Assembly (NCBI GenBank): GCA_028534125.1
Contig: CM052816.1
Coordinates: forward strand, 9,798,001 to 9,862,000
Reading direction: 5' to 3'
From: Lama glama
Taxonomy: Eukaryota
Length of the DNA: 64,000 bases
A program made the translations under genes and the position numbers. Position 1 is the stretch's first letter; every line of letters begins with the position of its first letter. Of this stretch, positions 7,127 through 42,600 are shown piece after piece. The notes under the pieces are model-generated. The model was not told where the DNA came from. It was given only the letters and a program-made list of their open reading frames with translations, and searched no databases.

Positions 7127-10100
7127 CTAAAGGAAGAATTGGAGTAAATACTTCATTAATAGAATGTCAGAGCTCCAGAAATACTTTTAAAATTATCTTA
7201 CCACCCTTACTTTATATTTGAGGAAGTAAGAGCACGAGGGGAACTGACTGCAGATATAAGCCAGGGTACTAGCTTTTCTACCCTGTCCTCCTTCTGTGAT
7301 TCTAAGATGCCACTGAGGATCCTATGACCCCTACTACAGTCTCTTTGAAAATAAGTTATTTAATGAGACCTGAGCTTGTGATAGGTGAGGCTTATCAATC
7401 TTCATCATGTTATGTCAGCACTCTGACACTTTGGCTGAATTCCTCACTAGCGGGGACAGCTTGGGGTTTACACATTCCTGTCATTGCTCTTTGTAAAAAA
7501 TTACAAAATGCTCGTCGGGTAGAGGGGCTCCTGTCTGATGCCATAGGGAGAGATTTTTCTCCTTGGGAACTGCAGGAATCTTGGGTCAACCCTGCAGCCA
7601 CAGTTTTGTGAAAGCTGAGGGTCTAATCACTGATAATCATGTCACGTCAATCCCCAAACTAAACACTGACTCTTAGCTAAAGGACCCACACTTTGTAGTC
7701 ACCTCATCCTAGCTCAGAGTTTCAGACACATAAGAGGTTAAAGATGCCTGAGAGAAGGCAAAACTGCAGTTTGTCTTAAAATCAAAGAATTTCAAGGACT
7801 CAAGGGGTATTTGAAGCCTCAGGTAAAACATCCTCAGTTGGCACACGGGAATGTGAGGACTGAGAGAGAAGAAAGGGCCCGACAGAGAGCACTGAGTACA
7901 GCAAGCCTGCTTTCTCCTCCAGTGGCCTTTGTGTTATTACGTGTTCTCCTGAGTGCGGGCTGATTGTTATCTGAGTGAGCTGGAGCCAATTCCTGGCTTC
8001 AAGGCTGATATACTTGGTAGAAAAGATAGATGGTAATTGCCATGGACTAAGCTTTTTCGTATTTCTCTTCTTTTCCCCCAACAGTACTCACAAGCTCTCA
8101 ACACACAGGATGCAAGGGTTTTCATAGGTTACAAAATTGGTGCCACAGATGGGTTGATACACGCCAGGGCAGGGGTTCGCTGTTCCTCTGAACCAACTCA
8201 AGTCTACTTTCTTATATGGACATTTCACCTGAAATTGAGTTGCAAAGAGTGATCCGATTAGAATCACACTCACAGATGCCTCCGGACTGTATTAGGAAAA
8301 TCTAAATGTGGGATCATATCCCAGTCTGACAAAAGCTCTCTAGCTCCCCCTCCACAAAGCAAGGGAACCAGAGCCTACGTGAGTCCCATCTGCTCACAGC
8401 GTGATGCCCTCGGTGTCAGGACCTCCTGACGGGAGTAGAGAAAGGAGGCCTGCTGTGCTGTCGTGGGAAAAGGAAGAGTGCATAAACAGGATGGATTCGG
8501 GGAATGTGGCTTCTTTCTCTCTCAATTTCCTTCATTCCCAGACTGTTAGACTTGGGGTTAGTCTTAGAGATTTTCTGTGGCAACTCAGCTAAGGAGACTG
8601 AAACCCCAGAATTGGAAAAGAAGTTTCACTGAAATCTGTGTGCCTTAACTTAAAATATTTGTCACATCTTATCTACTCAGAGAGCCTCCAGGCTCTTACC
8701 TTGAAGTTGTGAAATGTAAGAGCATTTAGAATGACACCCTGATTTTGTAGAGAAAACTGAAAACAAAGGAGAGGGGCTGTCTCAGCAGGGGCTGGAACCC
8801 ACGTCTGCTTGCTGTGCTGGGACCAGGGGTGGCTCGGAAGCAGTGACTCTGGGATGACTGAGCTTGAGGACGGCCATCTCAGGGGCTCTATGAGTAGTAC
8901 CATAAGGTGGATAAAGTACCTCTGACAGAAGGTGGGAAAGAGTTTGGGCTGAGTATTTAGAGAAAGAGAGATCATATCTGAGCTGAGAAACTCTTCTTTC
9001 TTCCCTTATCCGACACCACCACCATTTATTTGCCTCCTGTCCATCTGTCACCCAGCAAATCCCTCCTTCCTCTGTTCCTTTATGGCCGCTGTTTTCTATA
9101 ATCATCAACTGAATCATTTTATTCATGTAATTCAGCTCCTTCAAATGCATTTTACTGCACATAAAAAAATTGCTCTTAGTTTGGGCAAAAGGCCCTATGT
9201 GGTCTGTACCCTACCAATTTTTATAACCTTGCCTTTACCACCTTGCTCTTTGCATTTTATAGTTTTTTTCCCCCTTCAGATGCTCCATGCCTCCTCCATC
9301 TCAGGGTCTTCTGGTTTGTCATGACTACTCCCATCAAATGTTTTCTCTTTTTCCTGAACTTAGACTCAATACTGCCTTCAGATTATAACCTACTTTCTCA
9401 GAGGTACTTCTCAAAATACAACCCCAACTTTCCGTTCTTCTTATACTTCTAATCAGTAGGTCATAAAGCATTTGTATAATTATTTGACTAATTCTATACC
9501 CTGAAGGATTATAAGTCCATGCGGATAAAGTCTGTGTCTGATCAGACCAGCCAGCACATGTATCGGCACTTAGTCATTGCCCTGTGAGTATCTGCAAAAT
9601 GAATAAGATAAAAATAGTTCAAAGTAGATGAATGTTGAGTAATCAAATAATAATAATATTAGGTAGTATCGTCTGTAAATACAGCTTTTTTTCCCTCTTT
9701 AGAGTGAGATGTATATTCACCAGGTGGCTAGGATACACATTCATGTGCTGTGTCGCTGTAACGTCAGCTGCACCCTCTCTCCCCCCATCTCGGTGTTCCA
9801 ATCACACAGGCCTTCAGTCAGTGATGCAAGTAGGTGAATGTTCCTCCCTGTTCGCCACCCGGATGGCTCCTTTTCACCCTTCACGTCTCACTTAGATGTT
9901 CCCATGCCCAAGAAGCCTTCGCTGATCACACTGCTGACAGTAGTGTCTCTACTTTCACTCGATACTCTCTGCTGTACCAGCCTGCTTTTCTTTATAGAGT
10001 TTACCATAAATAAGGCGCTCTCTTCCTTTATTCTGGCTATTAAGCTTCATGAGAGAAGGGACTGTGTTTTCCTCAACATTGTATCCTAGGGCACAGTATG

Positions 10101-18334: not shown

Positions 18335-18340
18335 TTTATT
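18335..18340 (-). terminator. PolyA signal of the Kazal gene
   Basis: AATAAA ~55 nt after the stop. Confidence 0.75.
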
Positions 18341-18394
18341 GAAGAATCAGGTCTCTGGATTTGTCCCCACAACCGTCCTAGGGAAACCAGTTCT

Positions 18395-18491
18395 CTATGT
18401 GGACTCTTCCAAAATAAACGTAGGGCCCTTGGGCACCGGGGAGACCCTGCATGGTCCATATTTTACGAAAAAAAGTGTGCCGCGGCTCCTC
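18395..18491 (-). CDS. Kazal gene exon 4, [35 protein letters not shown]
   Basis: ttgcag| acceptor, phase 2, sixth Cys, TAG. Confidence 0.88.
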
Positions 18492-20420
18492 CTGCAAGAG
18501 AAATCATGTTTTTAAAAGGAAAGCTTTAGAGACCTTAAATTAAAAGTTGCATATTCTTAGTTCCAGCCAGCCAAATGCGTATACACCGTGAAAGGTGAGC
18601 AGTTAATCACTGAGCTTCAGCACTGTGGGAAAAAGGAATTCAGTCAACTGGTAAAAGCCAGTGCCAGGAGCCAACAAGTCTGTAAATTTCTCTTTTTGCT
18701 GCCACTTAATCATATTATGATGTTGATCAAGCCTCTCTTTCCCTAGCTTCAGTTTCTCCTTGTTATGCATTTCCTTTTTCTCTCCTTTTCTCTCTTTCTT
18801 TTTACCTCTTTTTGTAAAATGTCATGATTATCAGTCAGCCATCTCCCTCTTACGCTTTATGGCAGCGTCTAGCTTACTGGGTAGCTAAGATGGCTTCCGG
18901 TTCTGGGGGAGAGGCTCTTCCTACACACAAAATGTTAAACTAAGCACTTACGCAACGGCGCTGCAGAACAAGCATTTGTTGCCGTATACTCTTCCATCAG
19001 ATCCACAATGAGGATTGTACTCCAAGGTGCATACAGTATAATCAGAATATTTGGGGCACTGAACTATGCTCTGTCCAAAGAAAGGAAAAGAGAAAAAACA
19101 ATTTCAAAACGTTAAATCCTAGAAAGCCTTGAGGGATCATTTAATCCGAAATCCCACATGCCAGGGTACACATCCTCTGCAATTTCCTTTATCTGTGATG
19201 GTGAGAATACCGTCACAGCAAGGGAGTGCTCAGCCCAAGTTCACAGCCGTCTGATGAATAGGATGAATAGGATACAGCTGGGGATTCTATTTTGTACCTA
19301 ATTTTGAATTAGCCATCTCCTGCTCATACTGTCATCCTCTTTATTCAGACCCTCACTATGTGTTGCCTACATGGTTGCAGTATCTGCCGGTTTATCGCCC
19401 AGCCTCCGTGTTTATCGGAGATTGAAATCACCTTCCACACTGATACCAGAGTGATTTTTTTTGAAGCCAAATCAGATCTTGTTCAAATATTCAACTTTTT
19501 AGGGCTATAATGAGAGTCCAGTAGAATAATGAATGTGAAAAATACTGAGAAAAATTTAAAATGCTACCCAAAGGTAAAAGTTAACTTAGCCTCACTGCGC
19601 TTTTGCAAGGAGATTCCTTTTGCAACCTTTGAAAAAAAGAGACAGCACCAGGACAGGGAGAGTAGGAGCAGCTTCACGTCCTGCGGAATGATTTCAGCCC
19701 CTGCGCCCCAGTTTAGGTGCTTTCACAGCTCATTTACCCACAAGCTCTAATTTCATTTTTACGAAGACCACACAGAAAAGGTTGTACTCACTTTTGGCCG
19801 TATTACTTGATCACCCGAAGAGTGTGGAATAAGATGCATTTGGAGAGAAGGAATTGGAAAAAGAGTAAATTCCACAGTTAGAAATGCAAAGCTGAATTCC
19901 TTGTTCACAGTAACTGAAACCCATTTCCCTTGTCCAGGCCAGACCTAAGAGAGGTCACTTCTTTACTCAGGGCCATCTCAGGGTGAAGTCAGAGTGTATG
20001 TGGTCCTGATTTTAAAAATGGGGGAAAGGGCTTTTACAGGTACCCAGGAGATCCCGTGGGCATGCCCAGAGTAAGGTTGGAGTTATAGCCTCAAACTTGC
20101 ACAGGTAGTTTCCAAAGGGCCAGTCAGAAACCTAAGAGATCGTGATCAGGAAATGAGCAGAAAGCTCACAATCCTTTTATTCTTCTCAGTCTCTCTTCCT
20201 CTTCCTGAAGGTCTCACTCACCCCCACTTTGTTAATCTGATCAATCCAGACAGATGCCTTCTACATTTTCTTTTGACTTTAACATTCTGTAACTACTGAG
20301 TACTGGGTATGTCACAGTTAACAAAGAACCACTGAAAAGAATTCCTAACTCACCAGGTAGAGAGGCAGCCCACGTAGTGGCTGCCAGAGCAAGGATGACA
20401 CAAGCGGTGATGCTCTTCAT
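18395..20420 (-). CDS. Secreted single-domain Kazal inhibitor, double-headed submandibular inhibitor / ovomucoid-like (~98 aa); exons 20354-20420, 19792-19805 (micro-exon, less certain), 18952-19070, 18395-18491
   Basis: Signal peptide [20 protein letters not shown]8-C-X7-C-X10-C-X2-C-X17-C Kazal spacing; phases 1/0/2 compatible; polyA signal downstream. Confidence 0.85.
18952..19070 (-). CDS. Kazal gene exon 3, [39 protein letters not shown]
   Basis: 119 nt, long pyrimidine tract, cag|...GC|gtaagt. Confidence 0.92.
19792..19805 (-). CDS. Kazal gene candidate 14-nt micro-exon 2, (V)IRPK
   Basis: aag|TAATACGGCCAAAA|gtgagt; first AG after a ctaac branch site and pyrimidine tract; converts phase 1 to 0. 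Confidence 0.55.
20354..20420 (-). CDS. Kazal gene exon 1, [22 protein letters not shown]
   Basis: ATG in ACTATGA context; 67 nt; CCTG|gtgagt phase 1. Confidence 0.88.
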
Positions 20421-20508
20421 AGTGATGATGAAGGAGGGCCGTAGGGATACACTGCTCTGAGCAGGAAGTTCAGAGAGAGCGAGAAAAAGCGGTCTGCCAA
20501 ATACACAC

Positions 20509-20515
20509 ATATATA
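20509..20515 (-). promoter_or_regulatory. Candidate TATA box (TATATAT) of the Kazal gene
   Basis: ~90 nt upstream of the ATG; motif only. Confidence 0.45.
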
Positions 20516-23500
20516 CACAAGGCAGGGTCCTGTCCTCGTTAAAAATTGACTTTCTCAATGATTGGCTGTTAACCCAAGCTAGGGCAGTTTATTGTATTTG
20601 TCAAGGAAAACTTCCTTATTATCTTGAGTTACTGACAGTTGGAACAATTACCTCTTAAAACTCACCTACCGAAAGATATTTTACATAATAATCCTTTGAT
20701 GGCTCAGCAATATAATGGCATGACTATATTTGAGAAACAAATAAAATCATAGGGTAGTAAAGAGCAAGCAGACTTTCAAATGACATGTATCAAGGGTGTT
20801 AAGGGTTAGAGTAAATGCATAGAACATAGAAGCCATGAGGACATGTCTTTACAATGTACTGTGGGAGACAAAATTAATAATCAGCCCTGTGAACCCTGCT
20901 TTTCTAGAGTGTGGGCACACTTTTCAGCATTCTCCGAAGACCTGTTACATGATTAACTTTATGAAGTATGAAGAGGAGTAATATTGCTATTTCGCAGGTA
21001 GAACAACAAAATCAGAAAGCTTCAAGTGTATTGTCTTTAGTCACACTTAACAGTTGGGAGAGCCAGTTTCCCAGCATCCTAGGCCTACACTTTTTTTTTT
21101 AAACTGGGATATACTACTTCATTAACTAAAATGGACATTTATGATAAAAATCCAGGTTTTGCCCTGCTGTCTCCTGCCTCTTAAGACTGTAACCATGGTA
21201 TTCTGTTTTAACACATTCCCCGCTTCTGTATCTGATTTCTGTTTATCCGCATAACCGATATTTTTTCAATAACACAGGCCCAGTGATTTCCAGTTACTTA
21301 GCACATTCACCTCTCTCGTCTCATGTGGTCTTCACATCAGCCGTCCAGAAGACAGAGTTAACATAAAAATAGAATTAATTCTCAAAGAGGAAACTCACAG
21401 ACTGGAAGACTTAAAATTCCCCACAGCAGACACCTATTGAGATCTTGACCAAAACCACGTCTTCCAGTTTCAAATCTTACGGTCTCCCAGTAGCTGATTG
21501 CATTTCTTTCTGTTTTTTTTAAGGTATGTCTCGCTCATTCATACTTTGCATTTTCCAGTACCACCTCTTCTTCTCAGATAGATGTCTACAGTTTTAGTTT
21601 ATGCCGTTGTAAAAATTCAAATGCTTGCACCTGACATGTACTTCAAGGCTTCATCAGCATTTGAAACATGTGCACCGCAATGAGATGCAATCCAGAAGCT
21701 TTTCTGAATAGGATAAGTGCTCTTCTCTCCAAGTTATGGTGAAACGTCTGATTAGACTGACCACGTTCTAAGTAGAGGGCAGAGATGAGAACAATGGCTC
21801 ATTGGGTGTTAGACCTGGGGAGTCCCTGAACAAGCATCTGGGTCGGTGGTTTTCAAACTCTCTGCTGTGGTGGTTCAATTAAAAAATGGAACCTTTTCCA
21901 CACAGAAATGTAACTTTATGAGGCAAGTGATAAATGAACAGATTTTTTAAAAAGTAACTTAAATAGAAGCAGTACAGGGTTTAAAAGTACCTGCATTTCC
22001 ACCACACACCTCACGGTTCCATGGAAATCTCTTTGAAAACGTCTGATCTAGACTGCAAACAATAGAGGAAGTGAGGCCCTGAGAGGAAGGGTATCTGGTC
22101 CAAGGCCACTCCATGAGGCGGATCCCCTGGTTCTAGTACAAGACTCTCCCCTGTGCCATGTCTTCTCGGCAACCACACAGCTCCAAGTCAGCATTTCTGC
22201 CCCTCCTTACTTTCCCAGAGAAGGTGAGGGCGGATCTGCCATCTGGGTCCTACACTCAGTTCTCTACTCCTCCCTGGATACCGCCTTTCTGGCACCCCCA
22301 GGATCTTCCATGTTAACTTTGCTGCTAAATCCCGTTTTTAGGCTTCTCTCCGGTTTCATTCTGCTAATAGCTGTCAGTAGGAACCCAATCCAGGAAAATG
22401 TAGGCATCTTCATTTCCTGTCTGGTTTTCACACTCAAACCTAATCTATCACCAGTTAGGTTTTAATTTGTGTGTGTGCCTTCCTCTCCAGGAAGATTTTT
22501 TAAAAATTTTGTTTCATTTGTTCATTCATTTGTGTAAATTCAGAGTTTAAGAATCATGCCCTATAAAATCTGCCTTCCATGGTCCTCCCTTTCTGGAAAT
22601 CCTCATAGGAAAAATTAATCCTGTTAATAAACTCTTAGCAGGACTGCATTTTCCTTTCTTCTTTTTGCCATCTACTCAGTAAACTAAGGATTTAGAAACA
22701 GTATATAGAATTATGTTAAACTCAACATCATTGCAATTCATTGCCCAAATCAGAAGTCACCAACGAATCCACACCCATTTCTATTACCAGTTCCTTATCA
22801 GGCTCAAGATTTTGTTTCAAAACTCATTGATGGGTTTTGATTCTAGCGCTTGATGTGAATACGCGCTGCACGTGAATTCCTAGGAAATCCCCAGCATGGT
22901 CCTACACAGAATAGGTGTGAGTTTTGATCAGTAACTGTAGATGTACAACATAATCTACTTCTTCTCTTTTTCTACATAAACTTATGTCTGATTCTGAGCG
23001 CTCCACTCTGCCTGGATTTGGGGAGATTTGGTCTCATTCATTTTTGGAGTTTATGAGGATCTGAGATGCTTACGCAGTGCACAGAACATGAGAGCAGGTC
23101 CTCTCTCGTCTCTGGACGGTCATGACTGCTACCTGCATCTCCGTGGGCAAAGCCTGCCTTAAATGGTTCACCTCACTGAGGCTGCTCCCTGATTCTGTGC
23201 CACACGTGAGACAGGGTGATTTCTGACTGAGATTGAGAAACCCCTGAATCTGCAGACACTTTGTCACACTCAGCAGTCGCTGCCTGTTCAGGAAGCTGCC
23301 CAGCAGCAGTCTTGTTAGAACTCAGTCTCTCTGATTTCTCTTGAAAATGTTATTTCTTCTGTCTTGGTAAGTTTCTAAAGTATTCATGCCTCTAAGGGTC
23401 ATTTTTTTTTTGGCCTATTTTCTATGTTTTTGTCCAGTTGATTTCAAACCTCCTCTAAGGCAAAAAATATATCCCTTTTTCTTCTAGCTTTGTGATAACA

Positions 23501-39600: not shown

Positions 39601-42600
39601 TAGCAGTGATTCTCAACTGTTTTCTCTTTACACAGAGGACAGATGACGTTCACACTCCCATGGGTGCACATGGGCTTAGCGAGATTTTCTCTAATGATTG
39701 TCACCCCACCACTTTTTCCTTTCTCTTCCATTCAGTAAAGTATAGGAACGGTCTTATTAAAGGGATAACCTTAGATCCTCTGCTTTATGCGTGAACAAGA
39801 TCATTCATAACTGCTATGATTAGTAAATTGGTTGCAACACACCTCAAATTTATATGAGTACGCTACTGTGGGGCAGTACTGTCTTCAAGAACCTCTACAC
39901 TGGAGGACGGAATCATTCGACTTGTATACTTACAGGTTTTTGTGACACAGCATGCAGGGGTTGTTGTATGTCTGGCCATCATCACCACAGACAGGGTGTA
40001 AGTCCTTTGGGCAAAGGTAACCCATCCTGGGCAGTACTCTGTAGTGTTTGCACATGGCAGCATCCTGAACAAGCAACACATAAAGCAGATTCACTCAATG
40101 GCACTCAAGAGATACGGGCTTGGGAAACACTTCTGATTTCCTCAGTCATGTGTGAATAAATAGTGAAGACAGCTCTTTCCTGTACAACCATTTACTGTAT
40201 CATTTTTCTATTTTATTTCCCCCTTGCTATTATATTTTATTTATTCACATCATCTATTACCTTTGTTCTTCCAATAGAAACTCTGTAAGTGTAGAGAGTT
40301 CTGCTTTGTTTGTGGCTATTGTTCTCATATACATAGTAATGCTTGAAAAGTAGTAGGTACTCAAGAAATACTTGTAGAATCCATAAATGATGGCTAAATA
40401 AATGACAAAGTGAATATTGAGTGTAGTTCTCTTCAAGAGAAAGCTCGGCTCAAAACCAGATAATACAGGAGGAAGCATGAGGTTTCTGGTGTGCTGGTGC
40501 TCTCTCATTTCTTCACATACGTATTAATACCACAGATGTGATCACTTTGTAATATTTCATTTAGCAGTGCACTTATGTGCATTTTTTCTGTGTGGCTATT
40601 TTACTTCAGTAAAATGCTTTTAAAAAATAACAAACTTTACTATTAATAGTAGCCAAGATACACACACACACATATATACACAAAGGAATATTATTCAGCC
40701 ATGAAAAAGGAAGTCCTTCCATTAGTGACAGCTTGGATGAGCCTTGAGAGTACTATGCTAAGTTAAAGAAGTCAAAGATAAATACTGCATGATATCACTT
40801 ACATGAGGAATCTAAAGCCAAACTCACAGAACAGAGTGGAATGGTGGTAGGGATGGGACTGGAGAAAATGAGGAGACATTGGTCAAAGGATGTAAGCTTT
40901 TAATTAAAAGATGAGTAAGTTCTGGGACTCTAATATATGGTCTGGTGATTATAGTAATAATACTATGTGATATACTCAAAAGTTGGTATACTCCAATAGT
41001 CTCACCACAAAAAAGAAATGGTAATTATGTGAGGTGATGGAGGTGTTAGCTAACACTATAGTGGTAATCATTTTGCAGTCTTTAAGGGGAGCAAAATCAG
41101 TGTGTGTACACAAATTTACACAGTGTTATATGTCAACTATATAGCTCAGTAAAGCCAGGGGCAGGGTAACAGATTGTGTGAACAGCTCTCCTCCATGTTG
41201 GGGGATCCCTAGTGTAGTGCCTCATTGACTAGAAATATGTAACTAGTATACATTTCGCTAGTGTAACTCATCTATTATCCTATTTGATTTGGAAAAATAA
41301 TCATTTTTTTATACCTGTCTTTCTCCCTTGTTGGGTTATCAGACTAGGTGCTAGAGTCTCCCTTCTGGGGCCCAATCGGAGATTGTGCTTCATGAATGAA
41401 TATCCTTATGCTCTCGTATCCTCTTTCCTTCTCTCTACTGACTTTGGTAAAGCTCTAAAGAAGCAATCCCATTTAGGTTCAGTGACACCAAGGTACACGT
41501 TACTGATGGCCATCAGCCTACATTTTAAATAAAAAGTTTGAACTACTGTGAATTGCTCATTGGTGGAATTTTCCAAGTATAAATATGTTTAGCAGAGTGT
41601 CCCAGGCTTAGAGGGGGAGTGAGAGGCAGCTGGGTGAGGAGCCTTTCTGGTCTGCTGAAATTACAGAATTGAGGCTCCTAACTGCTAATGTGACCACATG
41701 TGCCATAAGTCACATTCATTATATACCCACTTTTTAAAATTTCAAAAGTGTATTAAATTCGCTTGGAGCAGGCCAGTAATCTCAAGGAGCACAGAGTTAT
41801 GCACCAATGAATAATCCCAGAACTCTTAGTTACTAAGCATGAACTCCACTTAAGCCTCAAAGGACTTGAGGCTGCTCTGAATCAGTCTTTCCCCGACCTT
41901 CACATGGAATGAGGTTTATGGAGAGCAAGTGGCAACAGGCCCCCTAAAATAAGTGAATTAAGTAACTTTTTAGAAGTCGCCTTTCTTACCAGAGACCTAA
42001 CGGAAGAATCTGGATTGTCTTCCCCTTCAGAAGATCTAACGTGGGATGGCCTTTCTTGAATGCTTGTCATTTCCAAAGCTTCTTTTCGACTAGAGAAGAA
42101 GACAAAAGTATTTTAAATTTACAGCTAAAAAGGCTAGCTCCTATAACTTCCGGGGAAAGCTAAGCAGTTCTAATGAAATACGATGGAACCACAGAACATT
42201 CAGTGAGAGCATGATTAGGATGACATGTTAAGAAAAGTACATAGCTTCGAGCTGGCTTAGCACTCCTGTCGCTTAATAGATGTGCGACCTTGAACAAGTG
42301 GTTTAAATTCCTTGAACTTAGATTTCCTGGAACATAAAAAGAGGGTAGTATTGGTAATTCCTACCTCAAGGAACATACTTCGAGGAGCTAAAAAAAAAAA
42401 TACTGATTATTATTATTGTGTTTCATAGTGTTTTTCCACAACCATCATCATCACCATCTGCCATACCCAAATATGGTTGTTCATCAGAATAAACTAGAAA
42501 CTCTTTCTAAAATAACAAATTCCTTAGTCCTGGAGACCCTGACTCCAGACGTATAAAAATTTGAGATAGAAAATCTGTGTGTGTGTGTGTGTGCGTGTGT

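Follow-up and report, generated by a model that had tools for sequence, protein, structure and literature searches.

The gene described here lies on the minus strand of a 64,000-nucleotide stretch of the llama (Lama glama) genome (assembly GCA_028534125.1, contig CM052816.1, positions 9,798,001 to 9,862,000), hereafter the window, from whose first letter all coordinates are counted. It spans positions 20420-18395 in four exons and comprises 98 codons, which encode a signal peptide and one Kazal domain with six cysteines. We estimate, with a probability of roughly 0.85, that it is the camelid orthologue of the double-headed submandibular inhibitor, in which the first head has been physically deleted so that a secreted product with a single Kazal domain is left. 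Neither the gene nor its family nor its mechanism is new, and the gene model has been annotated in four camelids; the one-headed camelid derivative is the point that is new relative to the literature searched.

The relationship to the double-headed inhibitor is apparent in several parts of the protein. The dromedary 98-residue protein, used as a query, gave 11 matches at E ≤ 0.001 among 16 candidates: the dromedary protein itself, eight that either bear the name of a double-headed inhibitor or represent the same pig protein, one unnamed pig-type protein from a sequence archive and one bird ovomucoid-like protein. The named non-camelid mammalian proteins among these 11 are all double-headed inhibitors. 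The coding part of exon 1 (20354..20420; ATG at 20420, 22 codons plus one nucleotide, phase 1) encodes the signal peptide. Seven of the eight orthologue models share 75-83% of its residues over a length of 20-23; the remaining model, of a bat, runs into intron 1 and shows 58% identity over 31 residues. In an alignment of 11 sequences the signal-peptide columns M1, A6, L12, A14, T15, W17 and A18 are invariant. Exon 2 (19792..19805) is a microexon of 14 nucleotides, flanked by AG and GT splice sites, that is entered in phase 1, left in phase 0 and encodes (V)IRPK; the corresponding camelid peptide AIRPK aligns with AIGTE or EIGVE of the orthologues. The first half of the Kazal domain, from Cys1 to Cys5 and including the reactive loop CTLEY, is encoded by the 119 nucleotides of exon 3 (18952..19070). 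By tblastn, this exon is 62-72% identical to domain 2 of the orthologues versus 37-47% to domain 1, which bears out the likeness to the second domain that an earlier note on this DNA had proposed. The coding part of exon 4 (18395..18491) completes the Kazal domain to Cys6 (residue 81) and adds a tail of 17 residues; over 14 residues it is 85.7% identical to the C-terminus of the pig protein.

The same alignment shows a single gap of about 53 columns in the camelid rows, located between the exon-2 peptide and the start of domain 2 and corresponding exactly to domain 1. In agreement with this, the Pfam profile Kazal_1 finds one stretch in the camelid proteins (alpaca) versus two in the pig protein, and the two tandem Kazal domains that mark the double-headed orthogroup are not present in the window gene. 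In the reverse direction, a search of the 2.35-Gb assembly with the pig protein returned exon 3 of the window gene as the best match (E = 4.9e-9, 63% identity), and the only other match was a SPINK6-like exon (E = 7.5e-7, 55%). Taken together, the camelid protein shares with the double-headed inhibitor the type of signal peptide, the five-residue exon-2 peptide, the second Kazal domain (..PHCGSDG.VYGNKC.FC..) and probably the location on the SPINK14 chromosome, but it differs in lacking the whole first domain with its Arg or Lys at the P1 position, in carrying Leu at P1, a position at which domain 2 has Met in 13 of the 14 orthologues and Leu in the peccary, and in having two extra residues between Cys1 and Cys2 and 17 residues after Cys6. 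Among the 150 matches listed in a search of a representative protein library, multi-Kazal proteins predominate; the search added no more than a handful of other proteins with two heads (P0097, P0138), along with one read-through artefact (P0107).

A maximum-likelihood tree was computed from 44 Kazal half-domains over 40 columns, after one duplicate pig pair and a SPINK14-like exon that the extraction pattern missed had been dropped. The four camelid rows and all 14 domain-2 rows form one clade (support 84/67), which is nested in a larger, starred clade (96/90). Two sauropsid domains and the SPINK6-like exon are further members of this larger clade, and all domain-1 rows fall outside it. With moderate tree support, this grouping suggests that the domain retained in camelids is of the domain-2 type and not of the domain-1 type.

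The tree also bears on a different explanation, namely that we are dealing with a distinct paralogue of the SPINK6/SPINK9 type, which never possessed more than a single domain, with a likeness to domain 2 that would stem from a shared branch resembling the ovomucoid third domain. The SPINK6-like exon and the two sauropsid domains indeed lie just outside the clade of camelid and domain-2 sequences, with unstarred inner branches, and the SPINK6 structure (PDB 2n52) nearly equals the ovomucoid third domain OMTKY3 as a match (E = 1.7e-12 versus 5.5e-13). RefSeq currently names the dromedary protein "SPINK9-like", which points in the same direction. SPINK6 resembles the camelid protein in being a single-domain secreted Kazal protein from the same chromosomal cluster with a shared 18-residue motif. 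However, it is encoded at a separate locus, has Arg instead of Leu at P1 (CTRES) and is placed outside the camelid and domain-2 clade. A paralogue of this kind would not be expected to carry the signal peptide and microexon peptide that the gene has in common with double-headed proteins, nor to be matched by the pig double-headed protein better than the SPINK6-like exon is. Furthermore, the assembly contains no second, double-headed candidate, so camelids would also need to have lost that gene, and no SPINK9-named protein is found among the 11 matches or was returned by any search. We consider a separate paralogue unlikely. The SPINK6-like exon itself (L002, G000:C266937:11230-11358) is located on a small separate contig, off the chromosome-scale contig of the cluster, which is likely due to fragmentation of the assembly or to an unplaced haplotig.

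Orthology with the double-headed inhibitor raises the question of when the gene came to have one head. The earlier note had offered two options for the trypsin-inhibiting head, namely that the gene lost it or that it had never gained it. Two heads are present in each of the 14 orthologues compared from outside the camelids, which come from pig, warthog, peccary, five bats, three pinnipeds, loris, anteater and armadillo. In the standard mammal tree, camelids branch inside this two-headed set. The single head is therefore derived, so that the first of the two options stands and the second falls. Since camels on the one hand and llama and alpaca on the other have the same 98-residue architecture, the loss would predate the split between these groups.

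The expected site of both domain-1 exons is intron 2 (19071..19791, 721 nucleotides), in which no such exon is found. Here tblastn with nine double-headed proteins gave nothing resembling domain 1 below E = 8, and a profile built from 15 domain-1 sequences reached −2.6 bits on the intron. When protein and DNA were aligned with frameshifts tolerated, the score was 30.6 if long skips were allowed and 25.1 if not, values that were reached by 139/150 and 81/150 dinucleotide shuffles, respectively. These results confirm the earlier observation that no domain-1 core exon is visible in the roughly 720 base pairs concerned. In addition, domain 1 of the pig, taken as a 55-residue part of the pig protein, had no match in the entire assembly better than E = 0.011 (46% identity), and its matches belong to other Kazal genes. 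Two candidate relics were rejected as chance: a weak tblastn match at 19647-19600 to the bat sequence CMYCFQNQVKGLSLRK (E = 8), and a stretch near 19680 that resembles a frameshifted VDCSKY by eye. A further idea, that exon 3 may be a hybrid whose 5' part derives from domain 1, draws only on translations of the pyrimidine tract, for example FFGQS versus FLSQLQ.

Sequence outside the exons does remain recognizable nearby. A stretch of intron 1 just upstream of the microexon (19814-19900, minus strand) is 62% identical over 29 translated residues to a RefSeq model of the bat Hipposideros (P0015; E = 6e-8). This model evidently reads through its own intron, and a pig model (P0010) and another bat model (P0012) contain a similar read-through, which points to mis-predicted database models. 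The match points to conserved non-coding sequence immediately upstream of the microexon. Because such non-coding sequence can still be aligned, a domain-1 exon that was merely skipped should still be visible, and the absence of any trace in the 721-nucleotide intron points to a physical deletion rather than to exon skipping followed by decay. As exon 2 ends and exon 3 starts in phase 0 (67 + 14 = 81 nucleotides precede exon 3), excision of the domain-1 module would be neutral for the reading frame. Judging by the two-exon structure of the surviving domain, domain 1 was probably a cassette of two exons. In the proposed course of events this module, with Arg or Lys at P1 and presumably directed against trypsin, would have been deleted in frame, giving rise to the four-exon gene with a single Kazal domain.

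Evidence that the exons are joined as modelled comes from contigs of four public sequencing runs (X1, X3, X5 and X7), which are 95-99% alike to the window and hence stem from close relatives, not necessarily from the same species. Runs X5 and X7, which belong to two studies and for which no tissue is given, are labelled as RNA with the remark that this is a guess. The joint between exon 4 and exon 3 is present in 15 contigs of X7 (18490/1 to 18951/2), with 460 nucleotides skipped and CT..AC ends on the plus strand. One contig of X5 connects exon 3 to the microexon (19067 to 19792, 724 nucleotides skipped), with three letters in between where that animal differs from the window. A further joint in X7 runs from 19074 in exon 3 to 20354 in exon 1, and the ten letters in between correspond, in reverse complement, to nucleotides 1-10 of the microexon. 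Since these joints include the sequence of the 14-nucleotide microexon, this exon is real. In X7, its first base is C where the window has T, yielding Ala, as in the AIRPK of the RefSeq camelid models, at the position of the Val of the window. Exon 2 is joined directly to exon 3 in the X5 and X7 contigs, and no domain-1 sequence lies between them. The Kazal match of exon 3 and the spliced contigs are both far beyond chance. An intronless DNA copy is an unlikely source of the joints, as the pig protein matches only the exon-by-exon locus and the SPINK6-like exon in the whole assembly. In X1 and X3, for which RNA-Seq of the reproductive system is on record, exons are covered to the same extent as introns, at a depth of about 5-9, and there are no joints; this cover is uninformative and says nothing for or against expression in the reproductive system.

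The transcript contigs are also relevant to the possibility that a two-headed protein is still made in camelids and that its domain-1 exons were missed through an assembly error or through alternative splicing. The assembly is fragmented (1,072,352 contigs), and some members of the cluster, such as the SPINK6-like exon, do reside on small separate contigs. Nevertheless, the window contains no N, the transcript-type contigs of related animals connect exon 2 straight to exon 3, the same 98-residue model was obtained in four independently annotated camelid genomes, and pig domain 1 is without a close match assembly-wide. A hidden first head is hardly to be expected.

The physical deletion of the first head would have left an intact gene, which can be set against the view that the locus is a decaying remnant that drifts toward a pseudogene and whose transcripts are noise. 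The spliced coding sequence, joined by coordinates in a script, measures 297 nucleotides, and its sole stop codon is the terminal one (TAG, 18397-18395, at the end of the coding part of exon 4). The three introns (548, 721 and 460 nucleotides) all have GT..AG boundaries, the donor GT after exon 1 being at 20353-20352. Cysteines are found at position 7, within the signal peptide, and at positions 32, 41, 49, 60, 63 and 81 of the domain; the latter six do not vary in the alignments. Of its 98 residues, the window protein has 2 that differ from the alpaca 98-residue model and 6-7 that differ from the camel models, and all differences between the camelids lie outside the segment from Cys1 to Cys6, which is identical in the four camelid sequences compared. 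Decay would gain some credit from the fact that the N-terminal linker and the C-terminal tail are the parts that vary between camels and the window, and from the predicted disorder of the camelid-only tail. The open frame, the unchanged cysteine-bounded core and the canonical splice sites throughout oppose it. So do the spliced contigs from two studies and the depth figures, where exon contigs reach 1e4-1e5 versus about 1e2 or less for intron contigs of the same run; these figures are a poor measure that cannot rank genes, and contigs cannot show transcript ends. A remnant on its way to a pseudogene is thus very improbable.

At its 5' end the gene has a TATA-like box, TATATA (20510..20515, minus strand), read from the sequence and with a putative role as promoter element; the 5' untranslated region (UTR) continues upstream of the coding part of exon 1. 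An ATG in the same frame is present at 20510-20508, 90 nucleotides upstream of the signal-peptide ATG, and its A is the last base of TATATA. Contigs of run X7 cover the bin 20468-20551 and none extends past 20551, which is a weak hint at the position of the 5' end. The 3' UTR extends from 18394 to about 20 nucleotides past the polyadenylation signal AATAAA (18335..18340, minus strand). The complete four-exon minus-strand gene of the earlier note, with its signal peptide, six-cysteine Kazal domain, TATA-like box and AATAAA, is accordingly found in the sequence, and a spliced transcript, whose absence the note had named as a refutation, is represented by the X5 and X7 contigs, in which the exons are joined as modelled.

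The gene does not lack annotation. RefSeq already contains the same 98-residue model from three camels (Camelus ferus/bactrianus, C. dromedarius) and the alpaca (Vicugna pacos), where it is named as a double-headed submandibular inhibitor-type protein ("double-headed ...-like"). Newer RefSeq models comprise 128 residues in the dromedary ("SPINK9-like") and 207 residues in the alpaca ("uncharacterized protein"). Both start at upstream ATGs: the dromedary model at the ATG that corresponds to 20510-20508, the alpaca model further upstream. The 128-residue dromedary protein was retrieved with exon 3 in a word-indexed search, and its last 98 residues have the architecture of the window protein. No literature was found that pairs "double-headed protease inhibitor" with camel or alpaca, or "Kazal-type 9-like" with camel, and a literature search on submandibular, Kazal, domain loss and SPINK gave nothing relevant among the titles listed. 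The name of the double-headed inhibitor occurs in 20 papers, and four of these with a bearing on it concern dog, pig, sheep or shrew; passages in two papers place the double-headed protein in the saliva of dog and pig (PMC6008695, PMC6789591).

The retained domain is a complete Kazal domain. Exon 3 alone matches the Pfam profile PF00050 (Kazal_1) with E = 1.4e-10 and 41.4 bits against a cut-off of 21, whereas the alpaca 98-residue protein reaches 54.1 bits against the same cut-off and covers profile positions 1-49 of 49, and the six cysteines are arranged in Kazal spacing. In the AlphaFold2 model, strands at residues 48-50 and 75-78 and a helix at residues 59-68 form a Kazal topology in the core, where the predicted local distance difference test (pLDDT) gives block means of 68-80 for residues 41-80. 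A Foldseek search with this model returned ovomucoid third domains and SPINK6 as the top 30 hits, with target-normalised TM (template modelling) scores of up to 0.75. The best solved relatives are the ovomucoid third domains of turkey and silver pheasant, OMTKY3 and OMSVP3 (PDB 1cho, 1ppf, 3sgb, 2ovo), which are 52-54% identical to the camelid domain (E = 5e-13, with 5.5e-13 for OMTKY3; TM 0.73-0.75). The reactive loop CTLEY is identical to Cys16-Tyr20 of OMTKY3, and no cysteine is lost in the alignment. OMTKY3 and OMSVP3 are unlike the camelid protein in that they are bird egg-white proteins, each one of three ovomucoid domains, that are not orthologues and do not have the C-terminal tail.

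After removal of the signal peptide, with cleavage probably after Ala18, a product of about 80 residues would be secreted. It is predicted to inhibit proteases in the canonical, substrate-like way ("standard mechanism"), with Cys41-Thr-Leu43-Glu-Tyr as the loop involved. Residue 18 of OMTKY3 is named as P1 in PDB titles, and P1 of the camelid protein is therefore Leu43. The loop with Leu18 at P1 has been solved in complexes with chymotrypsin, leukocyte elastase and SGPB, as the PDB titles state. On the basis of the shared P1 Leu and these complexes, the predicted targets of the camelid protein are serine proteases of the chymotrypsin, elastase and subtilisin type, and not trypsin-like enzymes. 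At the position corresponding to P1, domain 1 of the 14 orthologues has Arg in 13 cases and Lys in one, and domain 2 has Met in 13 and Leu in one. Camelids have thus retained a head with a hydrophobic P1 and lost the one with a basic P1. Both exceptions belong to the peccary (Catagonus wagneri, P0179), the sole orthologue with Lys in domain 1 and Leu in domain 2, the latter being the same Leu as in camelids. In the older biochemical literature on the dog protein, domain 1 inhibits trypsin and domain 2 inhibits chymotrypsin and elastase. All four camelid sequences have the tail of 17 residues after the last Kazal cysteine (18398-18448, minus strand), for which disorder is predicted; in the aligned non-camelid orthologues it is absent or consists of three residues (ESP). 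Among the 11 aligned sequences, both the tail and the insertion of two residues between Cys1 and Cys2 are specific to camelids.

As the earlier note had stated, SPINK5 and SPINK14 flank the gene in the window; all three genes are on the minus strand. The first Kazal exon of SPINK14 lies at 8091-8237, in a stretch noted as 8091-8291, and is 98% identical to alpaca SPINK14; in the corresponding search, 48 of 49 candidates pass E = 0.001 and nearly all of those with a gene name are SPINK14. On the other side, an exon at 39933-40055 (minus strand) matches LEKTI domain 15 (PDB 1uvf, E = 4.9e-24). The 3' part of SPINK5 spans 39933-63240 on the minus strand and contains at least nine LEKTI-type half-domain exons (CTRE.DP..G.DGK..GNKC.MC) at about 42.9-63.2 kb. 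A coarse form of synteny is seen elsewhere: for each of six species (pig, Rhinolophus, Rhynchonycteris, Tamandua, Dasypus and Nycticebus), the contig with the double-headed gene has the same size as the one with SPINK14. A further Kazal exon (L007, G000:C1:9745721-9745846) is located about 70 kb from the gene. Its core, ..CTSEYVPLCATNAKTYDNDCLFC, has A-T-N-A at the usual Kazal G-x-D-G position, and the exon forms a very long branch in the tree.

Several points weigh against the gene being an orthologue with an excised first head. The support for the clade of camelid and domain-2 sequences is moderate and unstarred, and the tree is drawn from 40 columns only. The comparison with the orthologues was made at the protein level, and synteny in the other six species depends on the equal size of contigs and not on gene order. 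The runs that carry the joints, X5 and X7, are only guessed to be RNA, and of four runs on record as RNA, the two that were compared (X1 and X3) gave unspliced cover only. The name "SPINK9-like" in the current dromedary annotation speaks for a different family assignment, and the upstream starts of the 128- and 207-residue models, if used, would make the signal peptide internal. The structural model is of low confidence overall (mean pLDDT of 58.3 for the whole chain), with low values in the linker and the tail, and the inhibition spectrum of the camelid protein is a prediction from the loop sequence.

For the family of inhibitors, the gene provides a clean natural case of in-frame loss of a module from a tandem-domain inhibitor that became fixed in a whole mammalian family. 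Inhibition is predicted to have shifted accordingly, with trypsin lost and chymotrypsin, elastase and subtilisin kept. The finding opens no new kind of biology, as this is an ordinary gene with a lineage-specific domain loss, but it corrects database names that mislead, in which a one-headed protein is called "double-headed ...-like", "SPINK9-like" or "uncharacterized protein". Leu, unlike Met, is not prone to oxidation. A tentative suggestion, which we hold to be possible but doubtful, is that the changes on the camelid stem were a remodelling and not mere damage: the trypsin head was excised in frame, P1 changed from Met to Leu, two residues were added between Cys1 and Cys2 and a tail of 17 residues was gained, while the product is still abundant in at least one tissue, which together may reflect a retuned mucosal defence against proteases. 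If true, examples of its possible targets would be subtilisin-like enzymes of microbes, or enzymes resembling leukocyte elastase, in the mouth and foregut of camelids, and the protein would constitute a natural "one-head" experiment on the role of each head of the double-headed inhibitor.

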